A stretch of DNA of 64,000 nt from contig JAUSGG010000015.1 in NCBI GenBank assembly GCA_030649165.1, positions 29,238-93,237 on the forward strand, given 5' to 3'. The stretch's first letter is position 1. Every line of letters begins with the position of its first letter. This document shows, in pieces, positions 1 through 30,696 of this stretch. The position numbers and the translations under genes were made by a program. Origin of the DNA: Armatimonadota bacterium (lineage in GTDB: Bacteria; Armatimonadota; UBA5829; JAUSEB01). A model generated the notes under the pieces. It ran no database searches. It was not told the DNA's origin and saw only the letters and a program-made list of their open reading frames with translations.

Positions 1-1
1 G

Positions 2-973
2 CTCGATGCAGAACCGTTCAAGGGCAAGTCCCATGCCGAGGTCGCGCGACTGCTGAAGGAAATGGGAATAGACGCCGTCTGCTCCGTTCCGGAAGACCGG
101 GGCCTCATCCGGCAGCTCCATTTGGCCGGCATCAAGGTCTACGCGGAAATGGGCATGTTCGCCGGCAAGCATTGGGAGAGCCACCCCGAAAGCAGGCCGA
201 TAAAGGCGGACGGCCAACCCGGCGGCGAGCCCGAGCCGGGTTACTGCGGCGTATGCCCAAACCAGGATTGGCTCCGGAAGGAAATCCTCGAGAAAGTGTC
301 TCTGAAGTTCCAGCATTACGAGTACGACGGCCTGTGGCTCGACTTCATCCGCTACCCCGGCAAATGGGAACAGAAGAAACCGGCGCTGGAGGACCTCTGC
401 TTCTGCAACGCCTGCCTGGAGAAATTCGCGAAGGCAAAAGATGTCCGCTATCCGGCGAAGCTGAAGACGAACGTGGAAAAGGCGCAGTGGATACTCGCGA
501 ACCACAGGCAAGAGTGGGTGGAGTTCAAGTGTCAATCGGTCACGGATTTCGTCGGGCAGATCAAGGCGACGATAGTCCAGTTGAGTCATGAGGCGATACT
601 CGGCATCTTCAGCGTCCCCTGGACGCGGGAGGATTTCGACGGCGCGATGCTGAACGTCCTCGGCCAGGATATACAGGCGCTTGCGAAACACGTAGACGTG
701 TTCTCACCTATGGTGTATCACGAGATGTGCCACCGGCCTTTGAAGTGGGTCGAAGATCACACTAACTACGTCTGGGAGAACACGGACAGGAGGGTTTGGC
801 CGATCGTGCAGGTGTGCGATGAACCGGTGGTGATGACGGCGGAGGACGTTTTCCGCACGCTGAACGCCGGCTTGGACGCATACGGTAGTTCGGGAGTGAT
901 GATGTTCGCCTTCCGTCACGCGCTCGCCGAGCCGGCGAAGCTGGATGCGCTCAAGGAAGCTTTTCGGAGGTAG
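2..973 (+). CDS. Hypothetical protein, 5'-partial (frame open to window start); possible glycoside-hydrolase-like TIM-barrel family
   Basis: Frame 2 is open from nt 2 with no stop, so the gene starts upstream of the window. The 303-aa listed ORF contains the LWLDFIRYP motif seen in putative glycosidase-like families. The function is not firmly recognised. Confidence 0.5.
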   Translation, partial: LDAEPFKGKSHAEVARLLKEMGIDAVCSVPEDRGLIRQLHLAGIKVYAEMGMFAGKHWESHPESRPIKADGQPGGEPEPGYCGVCPNQDWLRKEILEKVSLKFQHYEYDGLWLDFIRYPGKWEQKKPALEDLCFCNACLEKFAKAKDVRYPAKLKTNVEKAQWILANHRQEWVEFKCQSVTDFVGQIKATIVQLSHEAILGIFSVPWTREDFDGAMLNVLGQDIQALAKHVDVFSPMVYHEMCHRPLKWVEDHTNYVWENTDRRVWPIVQVCDEPVVMTAEDVFRTLNAGLDAYGSSGVMMFAFRHALAEPAKLDALKEAFRR

Positions 974-1026
974 GGGGCCGTAAACGCGATATTTGCGCCG
1001 GTTTCTCTCGAACGGCTCCCGAACGG

Positions 1027-1055
1027 CTTGACAAGCAGGCGGGCGGGATATAGAG
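1027..1055 (+). promoter_or_regulatory. Possible sigma70-like promoter (TTGACA-17-TAGAGT) upstream of the PEP-CTERM gene
   Basis: TTGACA at 1027-1032, 17-nt spacer, TAGAGT (4/6 match to TATAAT). Confidence 0.3.
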
Positions 1056-1294
1056 TGCCCATGAAATCTGCGCGTACCTTTGGCGCACTGGCCGCAAGCG
1101 CCTCGCGGCCTGACAACAGCGACGCGTGAAGTAAGGAATTCGGCCCGACGATAATGCCTGGCCTTGTTACGCTTTTCCTGTCATCCGCGGCACAACCGGT
1201 GAGCCGGTTCCACTGTCATTTCACTGGTTTGTGCGCGGCTCCGCGGAGCGAGCGAAGCGTACGCGGGAAATGCAGCAGGAAAGGAGGTGAGTGA

Positions 1295-1945
1295 TTGAGA
1301 ATTTACGTCTGTGTGATCCTGGCTCTCGCGTTGTCCCTGGGGTTGGTCATCCCTGCCTTCGGGGGCGCGACCGTCACTTCGACCGTATACCAGGTAAGCG
1401 AGTACAGGTATCAGTACTCGTATCACGTGAGCTTATACCCTGAAACAGGCTCCACCATCGATATGGGCCTGTCCCAGTTCGTCGTAGCCACTTGGAACAA
1501 GAACCTGGACAACTACACGAATTGGCAGGCGCCGATGGGATGGTTCGCGTCACTGGTAGCGCTGGGAGGAACTGAGGGCATTCAAAGCGCCCGACACTAC
1601 TCCCCTACCGGGGAAGTGTATCAAGGGGAGATTCTCAACGGCCCGCACCTACTGGTATGGACGGGCCCAAGCGGATTCGGCTCCCTTGATTTCGGGTTTG
1701 AGTCCAATGGCGTCCCTTGGAACATGGGTTGGCGTGCAGACGGATGGGAGACCTTCTGGGTTTACGACCCGGAGCTGCCGCCAATGCAAAGCCAGATTGG
1801 CTTTGGCAGCAGCACTGACTGGTCTGCTCCTGTCAACTGGGGCGCAGGTCCGGTTTACGGACCGGCTCCGGAGCCTGGGGCACTGGTCGTTCTCGGATCG
1901 GGGCTGCTTGCCCTGACCGGAGCGATGTTGAGAAGACGCCGGTAG
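1295..1945 (+). CDS. PEP-CTERM sorting-domain secreted protein
   Basis: TTG start preceded by the strong RBS AAGGAGGTGA. N-terminal signal peptide. C-terminus ...PAPEPGALVVLGSGLLALTGAMLRRRR is the PEP motif plus TM helix plus Arg cluster. Confidence 0.8.
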   Translation: MRIYVCVILALALSLGLVIPAFGGATVTSTVYQVSEYRYQYSYHVSLYPETGSTIDMGLSQFVVATWNKNLDNYTNWQAPMGWFASLVALGGTEGIQSARHYSPTGEVYQGEILNGPHLLVWTGPSGFGSLDFGFESNGVPWNMGWRADGWETFWVYDPELPPMQSQIGFGSSTDWSAPVNWGAGPVYGPAPEPGALVVLGSGLLALTGAMLRRRR

Positions 1946-1975
1946 AGCGTCGAAAAGTTCAACACTCGAAGGAGG

Positions 1976-2009
1976 AGAGGGAGGTAGAAGACCGCTTCCC
2001 TCTTTTTTC
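1976..2009 (+). terminator. Intrinsic terminator after the PEP-CTERM gene
   Basis: Hairpin AGAGGGAGG-tagaagaccg-CTTCCCTCT followed by TTTTTTC. Confidence 0.7.
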
Positions 2010-2024
2010 ACACTCCCTGTCACT

Positions 2025-4025
2025 TCAACTCTCCAGGTTCAGCCAACGCAGCTCTTCAGGCGTCAAGCCCACGTCGAGCGCGAGCATGGATATCCGCATC
2101 TCTTCCATCGTCCGCGGCCCGAACAGCGCGAACGTCGGAAACGGCTGGCAGAGCACGTAAGCCATAGCTATCGTGACCGCCGGAACGCCGCGCCGGGCGG
2201 CCAGTTCCCTGGCGCGGGACAACCGCTGGAAATTGTCGTCGCTGTGCCAGCAGCGAACAAGCTCCGGGTCCGATTGGTCGTCCGGGTTTCCCCAGGCGAA
2301 GAACCCCCGCGCGGCGCTTGACCATGCGAACAGCGGCATTTGGTTCTTCGCGAACCATTCGCGGGAATCGCAGTCCGAAGATGAGAGGCATCCCGTCCAT
2401 ACCGGCTCCATGCACCGAGCAAGGCTGAAGTTGTTGCTTACGGCGGCGAACTCCATCAGTCCGTGTTCGCGAGCGTAGGCGTTCGCGGCCTCCACGCGGT
2501 CGAGTGTCCAGTTCGAGCCGCCGAACGCGCGAATCCGCCCTGCTTTGTGGTGTTCGTTCAGAACGTCCACGAATTCCCCGACCGGCACTTCCAGGTTGTC
2601 GCGATGCATCAAGTAAAGGTCGATATAGTCGGTCTGCAGCCGCTCCAGACTCTCCTGAAGATGTCTGGTCAAATCGTCCGGGTTGCAGTGCGGTGTGTGC
2701 GCGCCCTTACCCAGGATGACCACCTGCTCGCGGACACCTCGGCTCTTAACCCACCGGCCCAGGAGCGAGTCCGCCGGGCCATAAATATGCGCAGTGTCGA
2801 AGCAGTTGCCGCCGCGCGCGAAGAACTCGTCGAACATCAGGAACATGTGCGACGTCACAAACTGGATCCTATCGACTACGGTCCCCATCACGAGGCGCGA
2901 TACCGGCTTGCCGATGTCTTTCACTTCTCCGTACCGCATATTACACTCCGGCCTGATTTCAACCGGACGCGCGTCCACGGTCGGGTAGTCTACATCCGCC
3001 TTCTCCGTATCATAGGTCACACCGACCGCCATACGCCACAGGTCGAGCGTTCGCATATTGCCGAGCGAATCGTCCCAGGTCATCGCGGGCGACGGGGCCT
3101 GTCTCTTGTCTAATGACGCGGCCACCGTGTCGGCCTCTATCGCATAGAGCAAGTCGGTCCCGACGTCCAGCCCTATTTCCTCCGGCTGCTTCTCTTTATA
3201 GCGATGCACAATGATCTTCGGCCCGCCGGTATCTCTCCCGCAGAACCAGGGCGAGGGGACGAAGATGCTTCCCTCCGACCCGTCGATGCGCACGACGCTC
3301 TCCTGACGCACTCCAACGCCGGTCGCCAGTTGGGCGATGATGTCCCCCGGAAACTTGAGCGTCGCCGCCGCGTACTCGTCAACTCCGGTGACTCCTATAT
3401 GCCCGGCCCCTTTCACTTCGATCGGGTCGGCGAAATCATGTCCGATGGCGACTCCCGCGATCAGCCGAGCCATCGAGGCGGTGTAGCATCCTACGTCCAG
3501 AATCCCGCCGCCGCCGAGAGCATTCTTGAACAGACGGCTCTCAGGGGTGAACCCCGCGTCGAAGCTGAACGTCGCGTGGATCATGCGCACTTCGCCGATC
3601 GCCCCGCCGCGGATCAGTTCGACCAGTTTCTCCGTCTGCGGGTGACAGCGATACATGAACGCTTCCATCAGGAAAACGTCGTTTCGGCGCGCGGCCTCGA
3701 CAACGGCCATCGCCTCGGGATAGTTGAGCGTGAGGGGTTTCTCGCAGAGGATGTGCTTCCCCGCGTCGGCGGCTTTCACAGCCCATTCGGCGTGCATCGG
3801 GTGCGGCGTCGAGATGTAAACCGCCTCCACGTCCGGGTCAGCGAGGAGCGCTTCATAGCTGCCGTACCGGCGAGGGATGCCATGCTCCTCGCCGAACTTG
3901 TCCGCTTTGTCCTGCGTTCTGCTGGCAACCGCAGTGACCTGTCCGGTTTTGGACGCGGCGACCCCTTTCGCGAATACGCCTGATATCCGTCCCGTGCTGA
4001 TTATGCCCCACGAAAGCTTGCTCAT
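2025..4025 (-). CDS. Bifunctional oxidoreductase: N-terminal Gfo/Idh/MocA NAD(P)-binding dehydrogenase fused to a C-terminal aldo/keto reductase
   Basis: N-terminal Rossmann GIISTGRISG...EKPL motif of the Gfo/Idh/MocA family. C-terminal half has AKR-like features (GGNCFDTAHIYG..., YIDLYLMH). Start chosen at the internal ATG (MSKLSWGII), which gives an ATGA overlap with the upstream gene stop. Confidence 0.75.
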   Translation of the reverse strand: MSKLSWGIISTGRISGVFAKGVAASKTGQVTAVASRTQDKADKFGEEHGIPRRYGSYEALLADPDVEAVYISTPHPMHAEWAVKAADAGKHILCEKPLTLNYPEAMAVVEAARRNDVFLMEAFMYRCHPQTEKLVELIRGGAIGEVRMIHATFSFDAGFTPESRLFKNALGGGGILDVGCYTASMARLIAGVAIGHDFADPIEVKGAGHIGVTGVDEYAAATLKFPGDIIAQLATGVGVRQESVVRIDGSEGSIFVPSPWFCGRDTGGPKIIVHRYKEKQPEEIGLDVGTDLLYAIEADTVAASLDKRQAPSPAMTWDDSLGNMRTLDLWRMAVGVTYDTEKADVDYPTVDARPVEIRPECNMRYGEVKDIGKPVSRLVMGTVVDRIQFVTSHMFLMFDEFFARGGNCFDTAHIYGPADSLLGRWVKSRGVREQVVILGKGAHTPHCNPDDLTRHLQESLERLQTDYIDLYLMHRDNLEVPVGEFVDVLNEHHKAGRIRAFGGSNWTLDRVEAANAYAREHGLMEFAAVSNNFSLARCMEPVWTGCLSSSDCDSREWFAKNQMPLFAWSSAARGFFAWGNPDDQSDPELVRCWHSDDNFQRLSRARELAARRGVPAVTIAMAYVLCQPFPTFALFGPRTMEEMRISMLALDVGLTPEELRWLNLES

Positions 4026-4429
4026 TGCTGTTCCCGTCCCTCGTCTTCCCGGTTGAATTCCCTGTTGCGCCACACGTCCCAGTCGATCTCTTTTCCGCCC
4101 TCTGAAGCCTGCTTGAGAACGTCCTCGGCTTCCGCCCGTTTCGATGCCGGCACGAGCACAACAATCGGCCGTTCGTGCAGAAGAGTTGCGCGGTAAATGT
4201 GCATCGTATCGGATTGGACGAGAACCGGGATTCCCGCGGACCCGAGGATCGTTTTGATAATGTCCGCCTCGATCACGTCCTGGGCGACCATCAGCGGCGT
4301 CGGTTCATCCCCCGAACTCGACTTCGGAGTTTCTTCCGGCGGAAGAACTCGTTCCAGCGGAACGTCACAGTCGGGACAAACCGCTACCCCCTCGACGTAC
4401 TCGTACCTGCATTTAGGACAAAACGGCAT
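4022..4429 (-). CDS. Zn-ribbon plus DUF2007-like (putative signal-transducing) small protein
   Basis: Start MPFCPKCRYEY...CPDCD gives CxxC-x-CxxC, with RBS AGGAGA upstream. C-terminal region resembles DUF2007. It sits 5 nt downstream of the 758-aa gene. Confidence 0.65.
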   Translation of the reverse strand: MPFCPKCRYEYVEGVAVCPDCDVPLERVLPPEETPKSSSGDEPTPLMVAQDVIEADIIKTILGSAGIPVLVQSDTMHIYRATLLHERPIVVLVPASKRAEAEDVLKQASEGGKEIDWDVWRNREFNREDEGREQQ

Positions 4430-4433
4430 GTTT

Positions 4434-6710
4434 TCATTTCTCCTCATGCACACGAGCCATAACCCGGCCCAACGGCTCGTCGTCCGCCGGCGGCTCCAGC
4501 AGACGAGACAGCGGGCGGTGTTGCGCATAGAACCGCAGCGTATCGACGAAGCGCACCGACCCATCAGGACAGCACCTGCCGAAGCTCAGTTCGCCCTCGT
4601 CGTAATCCCTCGTGTAATCGCGCGACTCAGGATGCTCGTATAAATCGTTCACCTCCCGCCGCTCTTTCACCTTTCCCGTGGAGACCTCCCACCCGGCCAG
4701 CGCGGAGAATATCGTCCCCGTTTTCCTGAACGGCAGGATCCGCTGACGCAGAGCGCGCTCGATAGCGTCCAGATGCCTCGGCTGAACACCCAGCGCCTTG
4801 TCCGCCTGGGCCAACTGCCACGCGCCCTCGGTCGCCAGCTCGCCGTACGCAAGGCTGGACCGGGGATGAGGATATCTCCACCCGCCAAGTGGGTCCTGGT
4901 TATCCGTCAGAAAGTCCGCCACCGCCTGAACGACATCGCGCAGCTTCGGCTCATCCGTCGTGTGTTGGATAAGCTCCGGTAGACCCGAAAGAGCGTAACC
5001 CAGAATATACGGCTTCGCGAATGGGTACAAGCGCCAGGCGCTGTCGTCCTCGATGAACGGGGGATTGGCGTATATCGGCCTGCCGCTTTCAGTAAACAGG
5101 TCTCCTGTCGAAAGAAGGTTTCTAAGCTCGCGAAACAGGCGCAGGGCCTGATCGAGGTAAACGCGTTCTCCCGTGCAGCGATACAGCCTCACGAAATCCA
5201 GAACACAGCCGACGTTGCGCGTGCCGTTGCGGCCCGCGCGCACGTGCTCAGACGTGTACGCGACCTGAGCCTTGAGCGCGTCGAGCATACGGGGATCGCC
5301 CGTGTGTTCGTAGGCCAGCAGAAACGCATAGAAGCCTTTCGTGCAGAAATGCGATTGGCCATTCGTCCGCCACTGGAATGTCCGATCGTCATGCGGCGGC
5401 TTTTTGCCAATAGGAATAACATTGGGATAGCGCGTTCCGCCGGTCTTACCCGGCCCCCACCAAACCGTCAAATCGTGAAAGTTCTCGCACCAGAGCAAAG
5501 CGGCCTTGAGGAGGCGACCGTCACCGGCCCGGTAGGCGTCTTCAAAGATCGGGATGCACAGGTTCAAGCGGTTCATCCCGTTGATCGCCCCATGGTCCGA
5601 CCCGTCGTGGAACATGGTCACGTTGCCCCAATCGTCGCCAAGCGCGGCGCTGCGGCGAATCGCCTCACGATGATACTCCACAATCTCGGCGAGTTCCGGG
5701 TAATCGCACAGATCCAGCGGGCTGCCGATGCCGTACAATTCATCCCACAGCCGAAGGTCCACAGTTACCGCGTGCGGGTATTCGAGCGTTTCCGCAAGTG
5801 GGGCAAGCCCGGCGGGCGCAATTGTGAACTCCGCCTTCCGCCACGCGGCCTGCTGCATCGGGACCTTTTCCTCCACCGTGGAGCGCAGATAGCGGTAGGA
5901 GATTCGTCCGGCCACGGCCCGTTTGATGGTCACCAAGCCCCGGCGCTTGAACTGCGCCGTCGGATGCCGAAGCGCAAAGCGACAATTGTCGAAGAAGGCC
6001 GCGCAGGAAGCGTCGCCCTCGAACTTGTGCGTTATCGCTCTTTGCCCGACCTTGTTAGCTCCATCCTCCGGTTCGAGAACGGCGGAGCTTGCCTCCACGT
6101 CCAGTTTCCACCCGAACGCCGGCGCATACCCGTTTCCTCTCAGATTCCGCTGCAGATGGGCGATCACGGTGACACCGCCCAGGACGTCCGCCCGAACTTC
6201 GATCACGCGAGGCCAACGCGAATCGGGCAGTAGAACCCTTGTCCACGTAAAGTAGCTGTTAGACTCGACGATCTCCGTTTGCGCCGGTTCACAACTCGTC
6301 CGTCTGGGAGCGACGAGGCGCGCGCGGAAGACGGGGCCGTCGCGATAAGTAATACTGACCGCTTCGCCATCCACTACAACGTCCGCCGCGAACGCCAGCC
6401 GCGGTTCCGACGAGCCGGACACAGGCATGAGTTCAAACCTGACCGGCTTCACGCTCTTGAACTCGTACGGAAACGTTACCAGCCCTCTGCGAACGGAGGA
6501 AGGCTTCTCTTCGCCGGGATGGTAAGACAACGGGCGCAGCGCTGCCATAACCCTGCTCCGGCCATCCGAAACCTCCAGGACTTCGCCCTCCCGCACAAAC
6601 CCCTTCGGAAAAGGCAGAGAGTACCGCACCAATTGCCGACCTGACGCAGCCGGAGTAACGGCGACATCAACCGATTCGGTCTTTCTAAGATCACTACTCA
6701 CTTCTCGCAA
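4434..6710 (-). CDS. Hypothetical 758-aa cytoplasmic protein (possible alpha/alpha-toroid hydrolase or lyase-like); TTG or nearby GTG start
   Basis: Long ORF in the operon with no recognised catalytic motif. Start codon uncertain (TTG at 6710 or GTG at 6701). Confidence 0.6.
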   Translation of the reverse strand: MREVSSDLRKTESVDVAVTPAASGRQLVRYSLPFPKGFVREGEVLEVSDGRSRVMAALRPLSYHPGEEKPSSVRRGLVTFPYEFKSVKPVRFELMPVSGSSEPRLAFAADVVVDGEAVSITYRDGPVFRARLVAPRRTSCEPAQTEIVESNSYFTWTRVLLPDSRWPRVIEVRADVLGGVTVIAHLQRNLRGNGYAPAFGWKLDVEASSAVLEPEDGANKVGQRAITHKFEGDASCAAFFDNCRFALRHPTAQFKRRGLVTIKRAVAGRISYRYLRSTVEEKVPMQQAAWRKAEFTIAPAGLAPLAETLEYPHAVTVDLRLWDELYGIGSPLDLCDYPELAEIVEYHREAIRRSAALGDDWGNVTMFHDGSDHGAINGMNRLNLCIPIFEDAYRAGDGRLLKAALLWCENFHDLTVWWGPGKTGGTRYPNVIPIGKKPPHDDRTFQWRTNGQSHFCTKGFYAFLLAYEHTGDPRMLDALKAQVAYTSEHVRAGRNGTRNVGCVLDFVRLYRCTGERVYLDQALRLFRELRNLLSTGDLFTESGRPIYANPPFIEDDSAWRLYPFAKPYILGYALSGLPELIQHTTDEPKLRDVVQAVADFLTDNQDPLGGWRYPHPRSSLAYGELATEGAWQLAQADKALGVQPRHLDAIERALRQRILPFRKTGTIFSALAGWEVSTGKVKERREVNDLYEHPESRDYTRDYDEGELSFGRCCPDGSVRFVDTLRFYAQHRPLSRLLEPPADDEPLGRVMARVHEEK

Positions 6711-6862
6711 CCCTCACAAACCCCATAAACCTCACCACCACGGCAAATCACTCATCATTCTCTTCCATTTCGGTCTTTCGTACTTTCGTGATTTCGGGAT
6801 AAAGGATTTCCTTTCCCGTTTTCCTTGCTTTCCTGTTTTCCTAGTTTCAACACCGTCAGGCG
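6711..6862 (-). promoter_or_regulatory. Purine-rich mRNA leader with at least 5 tandem GGA motifs (RGGAAARC repeats) between the activase stop and the 758-aa gene
   Basis: Minus-strand reading: AGGAAAACAGGAAAGCAAGGAAAACGGGAAAGGAAATCC ... GAAATGGAAGAG. Confidence 0.4.
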
Positions 6863-7765
6863 CTATGAAACGTTCAGTCCATAGATAGAAAGCATTTTCC
6901 TGGCAAACTGGAGATGCTCGTTCGTCGGCTCGGCCGCATCCGCTGCCGGCATTTCGCGTCCGAGCGCTCGCCACTTGACCTCGCCTCGTCGGTGAAACGG
7001 AAGCAGCTCGATGTTCAACCGCCCGATCGAGGAAAGGACCTCGCCAAACGCGCGCACCGTTTTATCGTCGGCGTTGTAACCGGGCACAAGGCAAATCCGA
7101 ACGACCATCGCGCCTTTTTGCTCGTAACGATGTCTAATGTTGTCCAAGGTTACGCGATTTCCCTGACCAGTTATGCGAGCGGCTTGGTCGTCGTCGGGAT
7201 GCTTCAAGTCGATGAATAGCAGATCGATCAGCGGAAACAACTCCGGCAGTCTTGGCTCGGAACCATTGGTTTCAACCGCGGTGTGAATGCTCTGTTCGCG
7301 CAGCCCGGCCAGCAACTCCGCAACCCCATCGAATTGGCACGCCGGCTCTCCCCCGCCGATCGTGACCCCACCCAACTTGCTGTAGAAGGACCGATAGCGA
7401 GCGGCCTTGTCCACAATCGCCTGGACGGACATCAGCCCTCCCGCCAATTCAAATGCGCGGCTGTTGGACTTCAGGCAGGGGAAATCGTCGCAAGAGGCGC
7501 AGACGAGCGTATCCCGGCGGACGCCATCAGGACCAACGCGGACCGCGCCCATCGGACAGGCTTCCGACAGGCGGACTGGTTCGTCCGCGCGACCTGAGTA
7601 GAAAAGGACCTCGGGCCTGTGGGCCATCGACTCCGGCGCGGCGCACCACGGGCAGCACATATTGCAGCCCTTGAGGTAGACGACCATCCGCTGCCCCGGT
7701 CCGTCCACGGCAACGGTGAACCCTGTGTTGAGGACCAGCAGGTTGTGGGCCTGGGTCTCGCTCAT
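6863..7765 (-). CDS. Glycyl-radical enzyme activating protein (radical SAM, PFL-activase family)
   Basis: CX3CX2C motif (GCNMCCPWC). Extra Cys-rich insert (CASCDDFPC). Start MSETQAHNLLVLN overlaps the GRE stop as ATGA. Confidence 0.85.
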   Translation of the reverse strand: MSETQAHNLLVLNTGFTVAVDGPGQRMVVYLKGCNMCCPWCAAPESMAHRPEVLFYSGRADEPVRLSEACPMGAVRVGPDGVRRDTLVCASCDDFPCLKSNSRAFELAGGLMSVQAIVDKAARYRSFYSKLGGVTIGGGEPACQFDGVAELLAGLREQSIHTAVETNGSEPRLPELFPLIDLLFIDLKHPDDDQAARITGQGNRVTLDNIRHRYEQKGAMVVRICLVPGYNADDKTVRAFGEVLSSIGRLNIELLPFHRRGEVKWRALGREMPAADAAEPTNEHLQFARKMLSIYGLNVS

Positions 7766-10221
7766 GCGACTCCCGCAAGACGCGTGGAGTCTGGATCGAG
7801 TCTCGTGATGATATCCTCCTGTATCGCGGGCGAGAGATCGAGAAAGTTCACGAAAGTGCCGTGGATGCGCATTATGTATATCCCGCTTGGGACCATTTCC
7901 TTCGGGTTTTCGAGAATCTTCCGCAGGCGTTTGGCAGTGTCCACGTTGAGATAAACGTAGTATCCTCCCCGTCGGTCGTCGCCGGTGTAACCGAACAGCG
8001 GGTTGATAACGTAATCCCGCAATCCGCGCCCAAATCTGTCCTCGCCGAACGCTTTTACCAGCGCGGCGTCGAGCCCGATGTGGCTTGCATACCCTCCGAG
8101 AAAATCCTCGTACGGTAGATTGCGCATACTCATTATCCTCACCGGCAAACCTTTCGTTGCCATCCCAGCGGTGGGATCGACGCCGTAGCCAAGCATCTTG
8201 CGAGCGCTCCGGCCGTCGGGAGTCGCTCCGGCCCAATAGCCGTACAGCAGATGGGTGCTCGGCGTGCTCCAGTCCGGCAGGAAAGGATTTCCGAACGAGT
8301 TCCGAAGCGCGTAGACTCGCGCCGAGACCTGTCGGGCAATTTCTCCCGCGTACGCATCGACGAACGCTTCGTCGTTTCCGTACTTAGGCGACTCCAGCAG
8401 CAAATCGCGCAATCCCTCGTGGCCCTCGAAATCCGCCAGCAGCGCTTTCGGCAGATCGGCTAAGGATTCGGGAGCGGTCGCGGAAGCATAGTCTATTGCC
8501 GCAAAGCTGTCCGCGACGATACTCAGCCCGTGGATGAGACATCCGGAAGCGTTGTATTTCGTCCCCTTTGCCGTGATGTCGCGCATGTCGCGGCCTGTAG
8601 TCAATCCCCCCATGAAGCAGGAGAGAAACGGAACGGGCAGGAGCGCAAGCGCTTCGGTACAGCCGTTGGCGGCCTTTGCCATACGCGGCACGAAGTAATC
8701 CAACTGCTTCCAAAAGGCCGATCTGAAGCGCTCCGGGTTACCAATGGGATTCCGCGGGTCAAGGCCCGTTTCCTCGTATGACAAACCGATCTTGCGCCCG
8801 CTGATCGCGCTCTTGCCGCCGTGAATCGTCAGTTCCAGGACCTTCGCCAGGTTCAGCCAACTGTTCGTGGTATTGCCCGACTCCTTGCCCATAATCAGCG
8901 GCTCCTGGCACCCGGCGATGCCGTAGAATGGCAGGTCTTCTTCCTCGATGCCCTTGCGCCGCAGGACTTCGAACATGCGGTCGTCGTTGAAGAAACTCGG
9001 AGTCAGGCTGCCCGGCGTCGTGAAAAACCGGCTCATAGCGTCGTAAAGGCGCTCCGGCGTGCCGGAATGCAGCTTGACGGAGAGCGACGGCTGCGGGTAG
9101 TTGCTCCGGAAGAAAGCGTCAAGGACAACGTAGGTCATCTCGCCAGTCAGATCGTGACCGTTCTCGCATCGCCCCCCCGCCATTATGTTCTGGCTGATCG
9201 CCCAATTGCGGTCCCCGACGTTGAAGAGCGCGAGAAGATGCCGCGTGAGCTGTACGGCAACTTCGTGGTCTACCGGCGCCTTATCGAAGAACGGCTGCAG
9301 AATCCTGTCCAGATTCCCCACACTGAACGCGTACGGGTTCGGAGCCTGCTCGATTGCCATCGCCATCCAAAGGAGGATGAACGACTGAATGGCTTCGTAC
9401 AGATCACGCGCCCCTTCGCGAAGGACACGTCCGCAGGTGGATGAGATACGCTGCAGCTCGCTTCGCCGCACCGGGTCCGCTTCAGTCTCGGCCATTTCCG
9501 CCGCCAGGGCCGAATACCGGTCCGCCAGATGAAGATCCCCCGACATCGCTATCACCGCGGCTTCGTAGAAGTCTCTCCTCTCTCCTTCCGCCGTGTTCGC
9601 CGCGGATTTGGCCCGTTCGATTAGATGAGTGAGCCCCTGCTCCATCGCCGGCCGGAAATCCGCCACCGTATGCCCGGTAACCTGCTCCACGAAGTATACG
9701 ACTTCCCCTGTCTCAAGTCCGGTTTCGGCGTAAACAGAGTTGAGCGCCTGAGCGTACTCCTCCTTCGCCCAAAAGTCTCGAACCCGTTGTATGCGCTCTT
9801 CCGTCAACCCCAATTCGGGCGCGGGCGTTATGTCGCCGTAAACCGCCATCGGGTCGCAATAGCCCGCGAAGGTCTCGACGCGAAACTCCGGGTTGATCAG
9901 CGCGTAGGTTCGGGCGAACGCATCGTCCTGAGTTCCCGCGAAGACTTCGTCGGGCCGGATCGAAAGTCGCATGCGTTTGCATACCGCCTCGAACAGCTTC
10001 GCCTGCGCGAGAACTCTTGGGAGCGAGACCCCTCCCCAGCCCTCCCCTGAAGAGGGAGGGAGCGCCCTTGCCCGTAAGCCCTCAAGCGCTTCCTTCCGGA
10101 TTTCCTGAATATAAAACCACCCGTCGAGGCGGACCATCTCCCGGTTCTGCTTCTGCACCGACAGAAGCTGCTCCGCCAAACGGTCCGGATCGAATCGAAT
10201 CTTCTCCTCCACAACAGCCAT
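7762..10221 (-). CDS. Glycyl radical enzyme (PFL/eliminase superfamily) with a divergent glycine-radical motif
   Basis: 819 aa. Cys loop GIAGCQEP (C-x-E, eliminase-type). C-terminal RIHGTFVNF...QEDIITR aligns to the canonical RVSGYAVRF...QQDVITR. N-terminal region resembles the GRE N-domain. Confidence 0.85.
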   Translation of the reverse strand: MAVVEEKIRFDPDRLAEQLLSVQKQNREMVRLDGWFYIQEIRKEALEGLRARALPPSSGEGWGGVSLPRVLAQAKLFEAVCKRMRLSIRPDEVFAGTQDDAFARTYALINPEFRVETFAGYCDPMAVYGDITPAPELGLTEERIQRVRDFWAKEEYAQALNSVYAETGLETGEVVYFVEQVTGHTVADFRPAMEQGLTHLIERAKSAANTAEGERRDFYEAAVIAMSGDLHLADRYSALAAEMAETEADPVRRSELQRISSTCGRVLREGARDLYEAIQSFILLWMAMAIEQAPNPYAFSVGNLDRILQPFFDKAPVDHEVAVQLTRHLLALFNVGDRNWAISQNIMAGGRCENGHDLTGEMTYVVLDAFFRSNYPQPSLSVKLHSGTPERLYDAMSRFFTTPGSLTPSFFNDDRMFEVLRRKGIEEEDLPFYGIAGCQEPLIMGKESGNTTNSWLNLAKVLELTIHGGKSAISGRKIGLSYEETGLDPRNPIGNPERFRSAFWKQLDYFVPRMAKAANGCTEALALLPVPFLSCFMGGLTTGRDMRDITAKGTKYNASGCLIHGLSIVADSFAAIDYASATAPESLADLPKALLADFEGHEGLRDLLLESPKYGNDEAFVDAYAGEIARQVSARVYALRNSFGNPFLPDWSTPSTHLLYGYWAGATPDGRSARKMLGYGVDPTAGMATKGLPVRIMSMRNLPYEDFLGGYASHIGLDAALVKAFGEDRFGRGLRDYVINPLFGYTGDDRRGGYYVYLNVDTAKRLRKILENPKEMVPSGIYIMRIHGTFVNFLDLSPAIQEDIITRLDPDSTRLAGVA

Positions 10222-10251
10222 TACCGCTCTCCTGTGATTCGCCTTAGAACC

Positions 10252-11682
10252 CTAAAACCCTTCCCCAAACAACGTCTTTCCCGCCGCCGTCCAATCCGCG
10301 TATACTCCGGTCGCGATTCCCGCCGCCAGGGCCGCGCCTACGGCGGCCTCTTCCGGGTGAGGCGGCATACGGAGCGTCATACCAACTTGTTTCTGTATCT
10401 CATTCCTCACCACGATATTTCTTCGCACCGCGTTCCCTGACCCGGAGCAGAATTTCGGAACGGCGCCCGCTCGCCGGGCGCAATCCAGAAACGCCGCCAA
10501 TTCGGCTACCATACCTTTGATAACCGCTCGCGTGAGATTTCCGACCGTGAAATTCGCGCCGCTCACATTTGCGATAGAGCCGCGCGCCCCCGGATCCAGC
10601 CGGCTGCCTTCGAACAGCGTCGACGCCGTCAGCACTCCGCACTCCTCGTCCGCATCCGCCGCCAGACGGTTCATCCGATCATAAAGCCTTTCCGTTCCAC
10701 CGGCATCGAATAAACTACTGCCAACGCCGGCGAAAAACTTCTCCAGGATTTCGTAAGCCCGTCCACCGCACAAACTCGCGCCCACGAGGAGCCATTGCCC
10801 GGCAACGAGGGGCCGGGTATCCAATCCATCCGCTCGCGCGAATCGCCCTATCGGCGCGGACATCTGGCCGCCCGTCCCCAGGCTCAACAAAACGCTTTCG
10901 CTCATAGAAGGAACGCTGCCCATGAACGACGCCTGGTTGTCACCCAGCGCCGCGGCGACCGGCGTTCCGTACGGCAAATCGATCCGTTGCGCGACATCCG
11001 GCAGCAGGCCGCCTGCCACTGATCCTGTCGGGACCACGCCGGGCAGCATTCCGTCCGGCAGACTCAGGGCGTCGAGGGCTTCAGGGAGCCAGCGCGAGCC
11101 GTGGCGGACGTCGAATATCCCCCAGCTCGCTGCGTCGGTCGGGTCGGTGACCGCGGCGCCACATAAAACGCGAACGATCAGATCGTGGATCGTTAGAGCC
11201 GTTGCGCCGGCAGGCAGGCAGCCTTCTTCCTTCATCCTGAGCAGAGTGACCGCTCCATAGCCGGTCGCCGGGCCGCAGCCGCTTGCTTTCAAAGCCTCGT
11301 CGCCAAGCCGATGGGCGAGCTCTTCCGCGTAACTCCGGCCGCTCGTGGAATACTCCGCGGTTCCGCGCCCATCCTGCCAGGTAACCAGAGGAGTAACCGG
11401 ATTAGCCGCGGAATCCACCACAACTACTCCGTGCATTTGGCCGGTGACGCCGATCCCAACGACCTCGGACTGCCGAATCTCCGGCCGGCTCGAAAGGCGG
11501 GCCAGCAGCGCCAGGGACTTGCCTGCAATCGAGCCGGCGTCCTGCTCCGCGACCCCTGGCGCGGACTCAACCCGCGAGTCGTTAGGCGCATCCTCGACGG
11601 CCATCATACGGCCACTCGACGAGTCCAAAGCCGCGGCGCATAGTTTCGTAGTGCCGATATCAAGGCCGATAAGAACACCCAT
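10252..11682 (-). CDS. FGGY-family carbohydrate kinase
   Basis: Start MGVLIGLDIGTTK matches the FGGY N-terminal motif. The product would be about 476 aa. The longer upstream ORF extension is low-complexity and likely non-coding. Confidence 0.8.
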   Translation of the reverse strand: MGVLIGLDIGTTKLCAAALDSSSGRMMAVEDAPNDSRVESAPGVAEQDAGSIAGKSLALLARLSSRPEIRQSEVVGIGVTGQMHGVVVVDSAANPVTPLVTWQDGRGTAEYSTSGRSYAEELAHRLGDEALKASGCGPATGYGAVTLLRMKEEGCLPAGATALTIHDLIVRVLCGAAVTDPTDAASWGIFDVRHGSRWLPEALDALSLPDGMLPGVVPTGSVAGGLLPDVAQRIDLPYGTPVAAALGDNQASFMGSVPSMSESVLLSLGTGGQMSAPIGRFARADGLDTRPLVAGQWLLVGASLCGGRAYEILEKFFAGVGSSLFDAGGTERLYDRMNRLAADADEECGVLTASTLFEGSRLDPGARGSIANVSGANFTVGNLTRAVIKGMVAELAAFLDCARRAGAVPKFCSGSGNAVRRNIVVRNEIQKQVGMTLRMPPHPEEAAVGAALAAGIATGVYADWTAAGKTLFGEGF

Positions 11683-12180
11683 AGGACCCCTATATATCCC
11701 CTTTCGTACTCTATCCCGCGTCTCCTTCCTTGTCAATGCCGGAGTCGGTTGGGGGTGATGGTTGTTGGTTGTCGGACCTGTCCGACGGGTCCGACTCGTC
11801 CGTCCGACAGCCTGCACCGAACGCGCTTCCCAACTCCCTGCAATCCTAGGGGCGGTCTGCCGATAATAGGTACCGTGCAGCTTGTCTGCAACGCATCCCC
11901 ATTGTTCCGAGGAGGATAATCGGAATTGGCACAATGCGACTATTGGTGGTTTGCCGGCGAGGTTGAATGGTGCGACCTCCGAGGTGATTCGTGCAAGTGC
12001 GGAGGCTGGCACGAGTCGTGCTACTTGCGTGGCAAGGGACAGGCGCTGGCTGACGAGAAGGACCTCCCCGTCCGCGCTCCATCCCGACTCAGGCAAGACA
12101 GATACGCGCGGCATCCGTCCCCGGACGGGCGGCCGTAGACGGTTGACGGTTGACGGTTGACCATTCTGCCCCATCCCCCA

Positions 12181-13767
12181 TCACCCGTCACCCATGCGGC
12201 TTTGTCGCGTCCAGATCAGCCCGGCAAATGACAAGACGACGCACAGGTACGCGAACCAGTCGCCGAGACGCGTATAGGGCGCTTGCCTCGTCAACGGTAC
12301 TATGTCGCGGTAGATGATCTTCTTCCTGAAAATCCCTGCCGAGTCGAGGACCCGGCCCCACGGATCGATCACGCTGGATATGCCCGTGGCCGCGCAGCGC
12401 GCCAGGAACCGCCGGTTCTCGACCGCCCGCAGCACGGACATAGCGTGGTGCTGCTCGGCAGCGGCCGTGCGTTTGAACCAGGCGTCGTTCGTCATTACTA
12501 CTAACACGTTCGCGCCTCGCTTCGCGAGTTGGCGCGAGATTTGCGGGAATATCGACTCGAAACAGATCATCACGCCCAGGTTGCCGAAATCCGCCCGCAG
12601 CGGCAGATAACCGGGTCCGGGAGCATAGTCGAAGTCCCTTATCTTGTACCGCGCCAGGAACGGCAGCCACTTTCTGCCAAACACCACTTCGCCGAACGGA
12701 ACGAGGTGCGCCTTGTAGTACTTTCCCACAAGGTCTCCGTGAGGAGAAAACAGAAATGCCCCGTTATACTCCCTCATCGCGTCGCCGGACGGGCCGGGAA
12801 CGATGTCCGAAGCCCCTACAAGCAAGTAGACTCTTGCCGCGCTCGCCAGATAGCCCAGCAGCCGGCGCGGTCCGCCCGGGCGGGAGAACTGGTCGGGTAT
12901 GGCGGTCTCAGGCCAGATGACCAGATCCGGGCGACGCTTCAGGGTCTCGGATGTAATAGTCACGTATTCGGCAATGGTTCGCGTCCTGTGCTCGTCCCAG
13001 GTCTGCCGAGGACGGACCTCCTGGTCCACGTTGCCCTGTATGATGGCGACTCGGACCGGCTTCCCGCTCGCCCGCCCGGCGCACAGGGCGAACGCGCCCC
13101 AGATGATCGCCGCGCATATCGCCGCGGCCACAAGGCCGGCCTGCGCGAGGGCCGTCCGGCGCGACAGTAGCAATTCAGCCAATGCGACGTTCGCCGCCGC
13201 GATCAAAAATGCAAGGCCCCACGGCCCGGTCACGCTGACGACTTGAATAACAGGAAGGTAGTTGACCTGCGACTGCGCCAGATTGCCCCAAGTGAACCCG
13301 AGGAGTCCAAGCGATCTGAGCCACTCGAACGCCGTCCAGACGGACGGAACGACAAGCAGCCTGAACCACGCCGAACGAGCGCGGAACGCCGGATACGCGA
13401 CTGCACAGAAGCCGACGAAAAACAAGGCCTGAAACAGAGCGAGCAGGACCCACGGCGCGTACCCGAAGATGGTTATCCAGTAGAGCAAGCCGCCGAAGAA
13501 AACCGCGCCCATCAAGAGCGTCGCGGCCAGACTTGTCCTGAAGGAGGATTTGCTGTACACGATGAAGATCGGCGCAAGCGCGACCCACGCAAGCGGCCAC
13601 AGGTTGAAGGGCGCAAATGCCGCTATCAACCCCCCGGCGGAAATCAAAGCCAGAAAGTAAGCAAGCGCGTTCACAACCAATACCCCAAAGGCGCTATAAT
13701 GTGTAGGGTTATAAGGGTCGCGAGGTTGTAGGTTTGTAGGTTTATGAGGTCTGTGAGGTTTAGACAC
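12181..13767 (-). CDS. lnt: Apolipoprotein N-acyltransferase
   Basis: N-terminal polytopic membrane domain plus a CN-hydrolase domain (VAIIQGN...WPETA...ICFESIFP). The N-terminus of the listed ORF overlaps the tandem octamer repeat, so the true start may be downstream. Confidence 0.75.
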   Translation of the reverse strand: MSKPHRPHKPTNLQPRDPYNPTHYSAFGVLVVNALAYFLALISAGGLIAAFAPFNLWPLAWVALAPIFIVYSKSSFRTSLAATLLMGAVFFGGLLYWITIFGYAPWVLLALFQALFFVGFCAVAYPAFRARSAWFRLLVVPSVWTAFEWLRSLGLLGFTWGNLAQSQVNYLPVIQVVSVTGPWGLAFLIAAANVALAELLLSRRTALAQAGLVAAAICAAIIWGAFALCAGRASGKPVRVAIIQGNVDQEVRPRQTWDEHRTRTIAEYVTITSETLKRRPDLVIWPETAIPDQFSRPGGPRRLLGYLASAARVYLLVGASDIVPGPSGDAMREYNGAFLFSPHGDLVGKYYKAHLVPFGEVVFGRKWLPFLARYKIRDFDYAPGPGYLPLRADFGNLGVMICFESIFPQISRQLAKRGANVLVVMTNDAWFKRTAAAEQHHAMSVLRAVENRRFLARCAATGISSVIDPWGRVLDSAGIFRKKIIYRDIVPLTRQAPYTRLGDWFAYLCVVLSFAGLIWTRQSRMGDG

Positions 13768-13821
13768 TCCTCAATACCCCGAAAACCTTAGAACCCTGAA
13801 ACCCTAGAACCCTGTAACCCT
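13711..13821. repeat. Inverted pair of tandem octamer arrays (TAGGGTTA/GTAGGTTT ... AACCCTGA/AACCCTAG) in a divergent intergenic region
   Basis: Read directly from sequence. The G-rich array on the left faces a C-rich array on the right. Confidence 0.7.
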
Positions 13822-14499
13822 ATGAGTCGTTTTCCCACAATAATGCTTGCCGTGTTCGCCGCGCTCGCGCTCACTGGATGCGCCCGCGCCCCCGCGGGCG
13901 GACCCGGCGCCGCGCGCAGACTGGTCATCGAGATGCGCGTCGCGGGCGTCATCAATCCCGACTATTTCTATTACGTCGCAATCGACAATGATGGTGACCC
14001 GAACGACGGTCCCCAAGCGGTCGTCGGCCCGCCCTGGGGCAACGGCTGGGGCGCCGGGGCGATTACCCATTACGTTCAGTTCGACACCAGCCTTCCGCAG
14101 GGCGGTTACGGCCTATTCAGGATACCCGATGCCGGTCTTTTGGGCAAGGTTTACCTCGGCCCGCCTGTCAACTTCATCACCCCCGGCCCCAGCGGCAACA
14201 CGCTCAGGTTCACGCTGGATCTGGACGATCTCGTAATCCCTCCGCAGACGGATGGAAACCAGATACAGACGCTTGAGATAAACTTCATTGCCACGGACGT
14301 GGTCCCCACCGACCCATCCTTCGTGGGCCCGCGGCAATGGGACGCGCTCGGGGACGGGAGCAGCAACGCGTTCCTGCGACTGAACGTTACCCCGGGGCAG
14401 TTCATTTCTAATGGCACGGAAGGACTGGAGCCGGACGGCGACGTCTTCCACCCCGATTTGGACATAGTGGACTGGTCGATAGAAGTGCAGCAACTATAA
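13822..14499 (+). CDS. Lipoprotein (signal peptide with lipobox LTGC), function unknown
   Basis: MSRFPTIMLAVFAALALTGC. Confidence 0.7.
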   Translation: MSRFPTIMLAVFAALALTGCARAPAGGPGAARRLVIEMRVAGVINPDYFYYVAIDNDGDPNDGPQAVVGPPWGNGWGAGAITHYVQFDTSLPQGGYGLFRIPDAGLLGKVYLGPPVNFITPGPSGNTLRFTLDLDDLVIPPQTDGNQIQTLEINFIATDVVPTDPSFVGPRQWDALGDGSSNAFLRLNVTPGQFISNGTEGLEPDGDVFHPDLDIVDWSIEVQQL

Positions 14500-14670
14500 G
14501 ATATTGAGTAAGAGTTCAGAAATGGAGAGAACTTTCACCCTCACCCCATTCGCTTCGCTCAGGGCAGGCTCTAACCCTCTCCCTCAAGGGAGAGGGGATT
14601 ACGCTCGCGTTCTCCCCGGGGGTCAGCAGCGAGAAGAGTCGTACCGACCCTTCCTGAACTGAGTACGATA

Positions 14671-14699
14671 TTGACAATCCTCCCCAATTCCCCTACAAT
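14671..14699 (+). promoter_or_regulatory. Sigma70-type promoter: TTGACA - 17 nt - TACAAT
   Basis: -35 at 14671-14676 and -10 at 14694-14699. It drives the downstream leader and the operon that starts at 14899. Confidence 0.65.
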
Positions 14700-14766
14700 T
14701 CCACTTGGCTGGTCGGCAAAAAAGCAATAGCAATCGCAGGAGAAACGCCATCCCAGCCCCTGAGGC

Positions 14767-14830
14767 GCCTGCTTATTCACGGTCTTGCCCTGTACGGCGG
14801 AGGTCGTGGATAAGCGGGCGTTTTGTTTTT
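14767..14830 (+). terminator. Leader terminator/attenuator (possible riboswitch expression platform) in the 5' UTR of the 14899 operon
   Basis: 11-bp stem CGCCTGCTTAT...ATAAGCGGGCG enclosing an inner hairpin, followed directly by TTTTGTTTTT. It lies between the promoter and the start codon. Confidence 0.6.
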
Positions 14831-14898
14831 GCAGTGAACAATTGAGCGTCCGGATGCATCATGCTATATGGACTGTCGGCAGGCGGGAGGTATCAAGT

Positions 14899-28153: not shown

Positions 28154-29179
28154 TCATAAGCCTACGGAACCCAACCTTACCTTCAACTGGTCGAGAACCA
28201 CGGCGAGCAGAATAACCCCGCCCTTGATCACCATCTGCCAGTACGTGGAAACGTCGGTTATGTCCAGCCCCACCGCGAGCACGCCGATCACCAGCGATCC
28301 CAGCAGCGTACCGGCGACGCTGCCCGTCCCGCCCATCAGGCTCGTGCCTCCCAGCACGACCGCCGCGATAGCGTCCATTTCGAACATCTGACCGGACTTT
28401 GGATCTCCGGCGCCAACGCGCGCCGCAAACATCAGACCACTCAGGCCGGCTAACAACCCGGCGATAGTATACACTCCCAGTTTCGTGTGTGCTACGTTGA
28501 CGCCGGACAGCCGCGCAGCTTCCTGATTCCCACCGATCGCGTACACGCGCCGGCCGAAATCGGTTTGCGTCAAAACGACATACCCCACGACAAATACCAG
28601 AATCGCCAGAGGCACGAGGGGCGGAATCGCCCTCAATATCGACGGCCCGCCCACTACATTAGTGAACGCTGTCGGCAGAGGACTGATCGGCACGGCGTCC
28701 GTGAACACCATCGAAAGACCCCTGGCGGACCCCATCATTGCCAGTGTGGCGATAAACGGCGTGACCCGGAGACGGGTGATGCAAAAGCCGTTGAACGCTC
28801 CAGCCGCCGCGCCGACGGCCATACTGACCATCCCGGCTACTAAGACCGCGACGACGAGTGGCCACGCCGTCACGGCTGGGCCCTGATGCATCCTTGAAAA
28901 CACCTGCAGAAGCGACATCGTCGACAGCACGCCCGCAAGAGAGAGGATCGAGCCGACGGAGAGGTCTATGCCTCCACTGATGATGACAAATGTCATCCCC
29001 ACGGCGATTATCGTGTTGATCGCGGTTTGCTGCAGTATGTTGACTATGTTGCTGCCGCTCAGGAACAGGCCGCGAGTGACGTAATCGAAGTACAGGCAGA
29101 GGAGAACAAAAAAGACCAGTATGCCGTAGGAAAGGAGCTTAACGAGCAGGTTTCTGACGCCGATGTCCGGTTTGCCCAC
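28154..29179 (-). CDS. Sugar ABC transporter permease (RbsC/branched-sugar family)
   Basis: Multi-TM permease, in an operon with the ATPase and the substrate-binding protein. Confidence 0.8.
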   Translation of the reverse strand: MGKPDIGVRNLLVKLLSYGILVFFVLLCLYFDYVTRGLFLSGSNIVNILQQTAINTIIAVGMTFVIISGGIDLSVGSILSLAGVLSTMSLLQVFSRMHQGPAVTAWPLVVAVLVAGMVSMAVGAAAGAFNGFCITRLRVTPFIATLAMMGSARGLSMVFTDAVPISPLPTAFTNVVGGPSILRAIPPLVPLAILVFVVGYVVLTQTDFGRRVYAIGGNQEAARLSGVNVAHTKLGVYTIAGLLAGLSGLMFAARVGAGDPKSGQMFEMDAIAAVVLGGTSLMGGTGSVAGTLLGSLVIGVLAVGLDITDVSTYWQMVIKGGVILLAVVLDQLKVRLGSVGL

Positions 29180-29182
29180 GGG

Positions 29183-30694: not shown

Positions 30695-30696
30695 AC

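Follow-up and report, generated by a model that had tools for sequence, protein, structure and literature searches.

Glycyl radical enzymes (GREs) perform chemically hard steps of anaerobic metabolism, and each newly characterised family, including CutC, HypD, IslA, and YbiW/PflD, has revealed a new nutrient route. A mechanism based on a Cys-x-Glu (CxE) loop is established for GRE eliminases and for YbiW and PflD, and the latter two, which use this same chemistry, are the only GREs known to act on sugar phosphates (PMC13450708). Here we describe a GRE that is encoded, together with an FGGY sugar kinase and a radical S-adenosylmethionine (SAM) activase, in a 64,000-nucleotide stretch of DNA from an Armatimonadota bacterium (the whole stretch is called the window below). 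The original prediction, made from this DNA alone, proposed a new anaerobic sugar route with radical C–O chemistry, encoded by a seven-gene, translationally coupled operon. The proposed route is a reasonable reading but the proposed operon is not, and the novel entity is a widespread GRE–kinase(–isomerase) module.

The window GRE resembles YbiW and PflD, the 1,5-anhydrohexitol-6-phosphate C–O lyases that act in the "anhydroglycolysis" of E. coli and gut bacteria, in being a pyruvate formate lyase (PFL)-like enzyme with a single-Cys CxE loop, a dedicated activase, and a context of sugar uptake and phosphorylation, and formation of a ketyl radical followed by scission of a β C–O bond of a sugar phosphate is predicted for both (PMC13450708). 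It differs from them in its glycyl motif (RIHGT rather than RVAGY), in its association with an FGGY kinase rather than phosphorylation by the phosphotransferase system (PTS), and in having no linked FSA aldolase; the isomerases and mutarotases that accompany its relatives also imply a reducing sugar and not an anhydro-alditol. Glycerol and 1,2-propanediol dehydratases (PDB 1r8w, 5i2a, and 9rco) provide the best sequence and structure matches and have the same Cys-x-Glu loop and catalytic His, but the window GRE and its relatives have a sugar kinase and isomerase as partners instead of a microcompartment or aldehyde dehydrogenase/reductase enzymes. In their combination of an aldose–ketose isomerase, an FGGY ketose kinase, a mutarotase, and an importer, loci of this family are like the FucIK-A (L-fucose), RhaAB-D (L-rhamnose), and XylAB (xylose) systems, except that the third enzyme is a radical GRE and not an aldolase or epimerase and that the kinase matches no known equivalog. 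The sulfonate GREs (IslA/IseG, HpsG, and HpfG), which act downstream of sulfoglycolysis, share eliminase chemistry with the window enzyme, and two related loci contain a YihS-type isomerase and a mutarotase, but the window GRE scores just 180–188 bits against the NCBIfam HpsG and HpfG models, which have cutoffs of 1000.

A GRE distant from characterised families

The GRE (819 aa; positions 7762-10221, minus strand) has the PFL-like barrel domain (PF02901, 2.2e-110), and its AlphaFold (AF2) model adopts a complete GRE fold (pLDDT 81.6, pTM 0.88). A HMMER alignment with glycerol dehydratase (GDH; 1r8w), the best PDB match at 211 bits, extends from end to end and through the glycine motif. Gly788, within the sequence RIHGT, aligns with Gly763 of GDH and with the glycine of RVAG in YbiW and PflD; RIHGT is a variant of the RVxG[FWY] motif, and the glycyl radical domain PF01228 was undetected in the window GRE. 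The Cys438-Gln-Glu440 loop (G437-C-Q-E-P441) aligns with GCVEP in GDH and with GCIET and GCVEL in YbiW and PflD, and has the single-Cys CxE form by which the GRE 1,2-eliminase and C–O-lyase classes are defined (PMC13450708). His184 is the equivalent of His164 in GDH. These catalytic residues are invariant across 25 diverse family members, and among 93 loci encoding the GRE or its relatives, RIHGT is found in 91, GCQEP in all 93, and VTGH in 90. As judged from these alignments, the enzyme carries the complete predicted apparatus of an eliminase or C–O lyase, consisting of radical Gly788, thiyl Cys438, general-base Glu440, and His184; it is a PFL-like GRE in which a glycyl radical is predicted to form. 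Cleavage of a C–C bond, which the original prediction had allowed for, is unlikely because the loop has the single cysteine of eliminases and C–O lyases and not the Cys-Cys pair of PFL. Assignment to the AARE enzymes, in which the radical residue is Ala, Ser, or Thr (PMC13450708), was rejected, as 91 of the 93 members have Gly at the aligned position.

The GRE clusters with no characterised family, and its identity to all characterised GREs is only 19–27%. Scores against the NCBIfam equivalogs are far below cutoff: 62–193 bits for HypD, CutC, HpsG/HpfG, the indoleacetate and HPA decarboxylases, and PFL, where the cutoffs are 994–1150. B12-independent glycerol dehydratase was rejected on a TIGR01774 (PFL2-3 subfamily) score of 262.9 bits against a cutoff of 678, on 24% identity, and on replacement of five binding residues, with His281, Ser282, Tyr339, Asp447, and Tyr640 of the dehydratase corresponding to Tyr297, Ala298, Ser343, Asn453, and Ser652 in the window GRE. 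The YbiW/PflD lyases were rejected as well (NF007437, 171.8 bits against 1109; 23–26% identity), and neither a PTS nor an FSA gene was present in the window gene row or in the loci examined. When the model was compared with approximately 50 GRE structures, TM scores were 0.75–0.79 at 19–24% identity, with eliminases and isomerases about equally close; the first structural matches were the diol dehydratases 1r8w and 9rco (TM 0.79, 22–24% identity).

A scan of metagenomes with two family-specific peptides yielded at least 540 confirmed relatives of the GRE, which occur in Armatimonadota, Bacillota, Bacteroidota, Planctomycetota, Verrucomicrobiota, and Sumerlaeota. Identity to the window enzyme is 62–78% for relatives in Armatimonadota, Sumerlaeota, and Verrucomicrobiota and 50–54% for those in Bacillota, Bacteroidota, and Planctomycetota. 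The family is thus large and defined by its motifs, and its hosts are anaerobes of gut, digester, sediment, and soil. The window GRE sequence itself is on record from an Armatimonadota metagenome-assembled genome. Database entries for its relatives are named merely "pyruvate formate lyase family protein"; NCBIfam (release of June 2026) has no model for the family, and the PDB contains nothing close to it. Literature searches aimed at the family and its partners returned no description of the family or of this gene combination, and the family is absent from a 2026 review of GREs (PMC13450708).

The activase (300 aa; 6863-7765, minus strand) scores 210.4 bits against TIGR02494, for which the cutoff is 174.35, and its translation contains the CX3CX2C radical-SAM motif. 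Its ferredoxin-like insert has just four further cysteines (C69, C88, C91, and C96), predicted to suffice for one auxiliary cluster, compared with the two that are usual in eliminase activases. The kinase (476 aa; 10252-11682, minus strand), which is the first gene of the conserved module, has both FGGY domains at scores above cutoff (FGGY_N, PF00370, 6.9e-35, 121 bits; FGGY_C, PF02782, 3.7e-09, 37 bits), and its start at 11682 matches profile position 2. No named FGGY equivalog could be assigned: the best NCBIfam model, XylB, gave 146.7 bits where 380 are required, and GlpK scored 70 against 590. A Bacillota orthologue of the kinase similarly reached no NCBIfam equivalog.

Gene row and conserved neighbourhood

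Six genes of the original prediction were confirmed by open reading frames (ORFs) and profile searches, all on the minus strand and each with family support. Kinase, GRE, and activase are followed by genes for a 755-aa protein without a Pfam family (4434-6701), a 135-aa Zn-ribbon/DUF2007 protein (4022-4429; PF09413), and a 666-aa fusion of Gfo/Idh/MocA and aldo-keto reductase (AKR) modules with Pfam domains of both families (2025-4025). The predicted seventh gene is lacking, as six genes had been listed and the next minus-strand gene upstream is the unrelated Lnt gene (12181-13767), 498 nt away. ATGA overlaps do exist at two junctions, where the activase ATG lies on the GRE stop codon and the fusion ATG lies on the DUF2007 stop codon, and spacing between the genes for the 755-aa and DUF2007 proteins is tight, if 4 nt and not the 5 nt first reported. 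These two overlaps are the only ones, however, and a gap of 30 nt separates kinase from GRE. Because a purine-rich spacer of 152 nt (6711-6862), with repeated CGAAAG/GGAAA, follows the activase gene, translational coupling does not extend along the whole row, which may comprise two transcription units. Searches of the spacer gave neither an Rfam match nor a terminator-like site, and nothing similar to it occurs in the rest of the window.

We sampled gene neighbourhoods at 93 loci (labelled L001 and so on), in which ORFs were called and grouped by similarity; 42 of these loci are flank-complete, meaning that 4 kb or more of sequence is available to either side of the GRE gene. Greedy ORF calling drops some genes, such as the window activase, and the co-occurrence counts are consequently lower bounds; contigs annotated with Pfam agree with the resulting picture. 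In the flank-complete loci, the GRE gene is adjoined by an activase gene in 36, by an FGGY kinase gene in 33, and by a gene for a phosphomannose isomerase (PMI)-like bicupin (~357 aa; PDB 1qwr, 1.7e-18) in 20, and a GntR/AraR-like regulator is encoded beside it in nine. The order of these genes varies. Activase–GRE–FGGY(–PMI) was found at 39 loci, FGGY–GRE–activase at seven scored loci (the window has this order but was scored as FGGY–GRE), FGGY–activase–GRE at four, and GRE–activase–FGGY at one. As the kinase keeps its place beside the GRE in at least four gene orders, a functional link is a better explanation than descent of a fixed arrangement, and the juxtaposition of kinase, GRE, and activase, which recurs across phyla far beyond chance, is not random. 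The conserved unit consists of kinase, GRE, and activase, usually with an aldose–ketose isomerase. The neighbours that were originally treated as one unit are therefore conserved in this upstream part and not in the downstream trio.

The isomerase is not always the PMI-like protein. The operon at L037 lacks a PMI-like gene and encodes a D-lyxose/D-mannose isomerase (PF07385, 1.6e-101), and the operons at L052 and L060 encode a YihS-type AGE isomerase (PF07221, 2.8e-108, and 35% identity to E. coli YihS for the L052 protein), so that three unrelated isomerase folds (PMI-like, D-lyxose isomerase, and AGE) are represented in GRE operons. Other recurrent neighbours are aldose-1-epimerase (mutarotase) or DUF4432 proteins, ROK proteins, and ribose-type ABC, MFS, or EamA transporters. 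Glycoside hydrolase (GH) neighbours depend on the locus, with GH32-like proteins in polysaccharide utilization loci of Bacteroidota, GH172, GH116, and GH95 proteins in one Armatimonadota genome, and GH31, GH38, GH51, or ADP-ribosylglycohydrolase-like proteins near the GRE at other loci.

Two local arrangements were also observed. At four Bacteroidota-type loci (L008, L018, L056, and L070), the GRE module lies inside a SusC/SusD locus that also encodes GH32 proteins and divergent proteins resembling them; in one GH32-like group, which has no Pfam match, the RDP motif reads ENP. These loci suggest an unusual furanoside substrate in those organisms. At L034, L040, and L090, the operon encodes a conserved protein of ~353 aa without a Pfam family, whose gene comes immediately downstream of the PMI-like gene and is followed by that of an EamA transporter.

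Proposed pathway and alternative readings

We judge it somewhat probable that kinase, GRE, and activase form a three-gene catabolic core for radical cleavage of a C–O (or C–X) bond in a reducing sugar that has been isomerised and then phosphorylated by the FGGY kinase. Because PMI-like, D-lyxose, and YihS-type isomerases, mutarotases, and importers accompany the module in other lineages, the free reducing sugar would be imported, converted from aldose to ketose, and phosphorylated before it reached the GRE. The activase would install the glycyl radical on the GRE, Cys438 would take a hydrogen atom from a carbinol carbon of the sugar phosphate, and Glu440 would deprotonate the hydroxyl to give a ketyl radical. 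The neighbouring C–O bond would then break, with a hydroxyl, an ether oxygen, or another substituent as leaving group, and return of the hydrogen atom would generate a deoxy-keto sugar phosphate fit for ordinary aldolases. Hydrogen abstraction, the ketyl radical, and loss of a β-substituent are proposed because the enzyme has the CxE/His apparatus of GRE eliminases and YbiW/PflD. The GRE would fill the slot that is held by an aldolase or epimerase in the fucose, rhamnose, and xylose pathways, and a radical enzyme would plausibly be needed for a bond that resists hydrolysis or aldolase action, such as an ether, a C–S bond, or an awkward hydroxyl. In the window lineage, the 755-aa protein, a PL26-like candidate, may release or convert the sugar, and it could be speculated that the Gfo-AKR fusion replaces the isomerase by way of aldose, alditol, and ketose.

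If this pathway is correct, it would be the second case of radical sugar-phosphate chemistry, beyond anhydroglycolysis. The conserved partners (a kinase, isomerases of three folds, mutarotases, and importers) make the function directly testable, and trials with a few ketose phosphates should be enough to identify the substrate. Were the substrate an abundant "indigestible" sugar derivative, a gap in anaerobic carbon cycling would be filled, and one in sulfur cycling as well for a sulfosugar. We propose, as a tentative and rather doubtful extension, that these enzymes are a new functional class of GREs, which would carry out a radical cleavage undescribed for GREs on the ketose phosphate made by the partner isomerase and kinase. 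The reaction would be de-etherification, dehydration, or desulfonation of an intact sugar in a widespread PTS-independent anaerobic pathway spanning at least six phyla, with the DUF2007 protein as a possible new accessory subunit of the Armatimonadota enzymes.

Several observations weigh against the kinase-then-GRE pathway. Nine of the 42 flank-complete loci have no FGGY gene nearby, neither an aldolase nor any other enzyme for later steps was seen as a conserved neighbour, and no single source glycan emerges, as the GH context varies by locus. The 64-kb window contains no PMI-like, lyxose-isomerase, or YihS homologue; homologues of the mutarotase, ROK, PfkB, and GH32-like proteins are also absent, and the sole match to the recurrent neighbours is an ABC transporter at 28–31.6 kb. 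The order in which the kinase would precede the GRE is a prediction, as are the type of substrate and the activity proposed for the GRE. As to the trio, L095 is the only other locus at which the 755-aa and Gfo-AKR genes were found with the GRE gene, and synteny there extends to the unrelated Lnt gene; the first of the two genes is preceded in the window by the 152-nt gap. Lnt is likewise syntenic at L096, and synteny of so unrelated a gene at both loci makes synteny at such distance weak evidence of shared function.

The same genes can be read with other substrates or in another order. An unlikely alternative is that the GRE acts first on a free sugar or polyol, by dehydration of an alditol or opening of an anhydro-sugar ring, after which isomerase and kinase make a central phosphosugar. 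An isomerase and a kinase are indeed the only conserved genes besides those for GRE and activase, and are what the steps after the GRE would need; the closest structures are dehydratases of free diols (GDH and 1,2-propanediol dehydratase), and E. coli XylB-type FGGY kinases accept deoxy-ketoses. Eliminase products, on the other hand, carry a CH2 group beside the new carbonyl and, on chemical grounds, would mostly be poor substrates for C1/C2 isomerases, and the mutarotases at several loci argue for an imported reducing sugar and not a polyol. That last point bears also on a PTS-independent form of anhydroglycolysis, which we consider very unlikely, in which the kinase would phosphorylate 1,5-anhydroglucitol or 1,5-anhydromannitol, the GRE would cleave the ring ether of the product to form 1-deoxy-fructose-6-phosphate, and in the window the Gfo-AKR fusion would be a 1,5-anhydrofructose reductase (AFR). 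1,5-Anhydroalditols have no anomeric centre or carbonyl, which weakens this scheme by leaving the conserved isomerases and mutarotases without a role, and FGGY kinases are not known to act on pyranoid polyols. Many of the host phyla do lack sugar PTS systems, and the window GRE shares CxE chemistry with YbiW and PflD, the known sugar-phosphate GREs; it is, however, no closer to them, at 23–26% identity for the family, than to other GREs, and no FSA-type aldolase is linked. One half of the fusion matches dihydrodiol dehydrogenase (DHDH) and AFR, the other half is an AKR, and DHDH, AKR1E2, and AFR have all been reported as 1,5-anhydrofructose reductases (PMC12441222). Set against this match, the fusion is common in Armatimonadota, and the context of one homologue (L101) has no GRE.

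Another alternative is a sulfosugar route. An isomerase would turn sulfoquinovose into sulfofructose, the FGGY kinase would add a phosphate at C1, and the GRE would remove the C6 sulfite to leave 6-deoxy-5-ketofructose-1-phosphate, by analogy with sulfite elimination from C2/C3 sulfonates by IslA and HpsG. Sulfoquinovose is found everywhere, in keeping with the diversity of habitats, and the operons at L052 and L060 encode mutarotases and YihS-type isomerases (35% identity to the E. coli sulfoquinovose isomerase). A sulfonate mimics a 6-phosphate, as SftI also converts fructose-6-phosphate to glucose-6-phosphate (PMC7491151), and action of a PMI-like enzyme on a 6-sulfo sugar is therefore conceivable. 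We nevertheless hold this reading to be quite improbable. YihS-type genes occur at just two of the 93 loci, the GRE loci have no sulfoquinovosidase signature (in two nearby GH31 proteins, the R301/W304 loop is missing and Y508 is changed), no YihO, YihP, YihT, or YihU homologue was found at any locus, and no sulfite exporter or sulfite reductase was noticed. GRE C–S lyases are known, but none acts on an intact sulfosugar, their substrates being C2/C3 sulfonates (PMC12890257).

A separate question is whether the downstream trio belongs to the module at all. It is a serious possibility, if one that falls somewhat short of probable, that the trio is functionally unrelated to the GRE module and adjoins it by inherited synteny in one Armatimonadota lineage. 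At 91 other GRE loci there is no such trio, the 755-aa and Gfo-AKR families are found in contexts unrelated to GREs, and the synteny of Lnt at L095 and L096 and the long spacer in the window point the same way. At L095, whose GRE is 77% identical, the order is the same as in the window, with kinase, GRE, activase, a 744-aa protein, DUF2007, and the fusion, whereas DUF2007, PFK, and PfkB genes are found downstream at L001 (GRE 75% identical). Weighing against this reading are the shared strand and tight packing of the trio, the junction of 19 nt between the activase and 744-aa genes at L095 (compared with 152 nt in the window), the plausible relation of all three proteins to carbohydrates, and the presence of DUF2007 after the activase in all three close relatives with downstream sequence. 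We rejected the idea of a mobile module that travels with the GRE, as the genes occur separately elsewhere, and tentatively suggest that the downstream genes could be lineage-specific additions in the window's Armatimonadota lineage.

Downstream proteins and other features of the window

The gene for the 755-aa protein was first read as a 758-aa ORF (4434-6710 if TTG at 6710 is the start); GTG at 6701, with GAGGG 9 nt upstream, is the likelier start. The protein is predicted to be cytoplasmic, and is a PL26-like candidate with a predicted mutarotase-like β-sandwich and an (α/α)6 six-hairpin barrel. Its identity to PL26 exo-rhamnogalacturonan lyase is 10%, and, from its sequence, it differs from that enzyme in lacking the C-terminal third domain and a signal peptide. 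Relatives are well-conserved "hypothetical" proteins in Armatimonadota, Verrucomicrobiota, and Acidobacteriota, with unrelated neighbours in the other genomes.

The Zn-ribbon/DUF2007 protein has an N-terminal CPxC...CPxC sequence and matches PF09413 at 7.5e-07 (29.7 bits; cutoff 25.7). Its gene follows the activase gene in the window, at L001 (4956-5291), and at L095 (8952-9290), which are the three closest relatives with downstream sequence, and the other downstream genes differ. The 2026 GRE review notes a rubredoxin-like accessory subunit for MASS only (PMC13450708). The DUF2007 protein could serve the GRE as an accessory or a regulator in this lineage only.

The Gfo-AKR fusion matches PF01408 (83 bits), PF22725 (68 bits), and PF00248 (155 bits) above cutoff and reaches no NCBIfam equivalog. 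For the N-terminal Gfo half, the best PDB match is dimeric dihydrodiol dehydrogenase (2o48, 6.6e-43), and AFR is also matched (2glx, 2e-26). Fusions with 62–72% identity are common in Armatimonadota, including Abditibacteriaceae, and on the one long contig examined (L101) the homologue lies in a different sugar context with no GRE nearby.

Upstream of the kinase, a consensus scan located the promoter-like site TTGACA-17-TAGAGT (11708-11736, minus strand), whose TTGACAA and TA(G/A)AGTAC blocks are kept at L095 and L096 and which is a putative promoter of the kinase gene. No tRNA was found upstream of the kinase, and a search for regulatory RNA returned no Rfam match (E up to 1) across positions 1-15000 of the window. 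A conserved block of 86 nt upstream of the kinase was rejected as an RNA element because it proved to encode a small protein on the opposite strand.

This small gene is an unannotated 70-aa ORF with a TTG start (11926-12138, plus strand), which lies between Lnt and the kinase, is divergent from the latter, and has homologues at L095 (1719-1507) and L096 (8351-8145). It reads MAQCDYWWFAGEVEWCDLRGDSCKCGGWHESCYLRG, followed by a variable basic tail. Over the first 35 codons, substitutions at codon positions one, two, and three number 1/1/16, 1/2/17, and 1/3/13, with synonymous changes exceeding non-synonymous ones. As substitutions fall almost only at third codon positions, the ORF is a real gene under purifying selection; at this gene, gene callers had put ORFs on the wrong strand in relatives. 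No Pfam or NCBIfam family covers the protein, which belongs to a small family of ~68-aa proteins with invariant C4, W7, C16, C23, C25, G27, and C32 and an Arg-rich tail, and 18 of its 21 representative matches are of this size.

The original prediction had cited an L-rhamnose isomerase and a ribose-type ABC importer elsewhere in the window as signs of a sugar-catabolic lifestyle. Both are present, the isomerase at 44713-45945 (plus strand; TIGR02635, 551.7 bits, cutoff 531) and the importer at 28154-31617, at distances of 17–33 kb from the gene row. The isomerase gene stands alone in that the annotated neighbours examined are an ECF-type sigma factor with a nuclease domain and a URO-D-like gene. 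No rhamnulokinase or aldolase gene was noticed beside it, and the one FGGY kinase identified in the window is that of the GRE module. Two further ORFs on the plus strand, of 216 aa (1295-1945) and 225 aa (13822-14499), have no Pfam match where tested. The latter is lipoprotein-like, and the former encodes a secreted protein that ends in a PEP-CTERM-like sorting signal (PEPGALVVLGSGLLALTGAMLRRRR).

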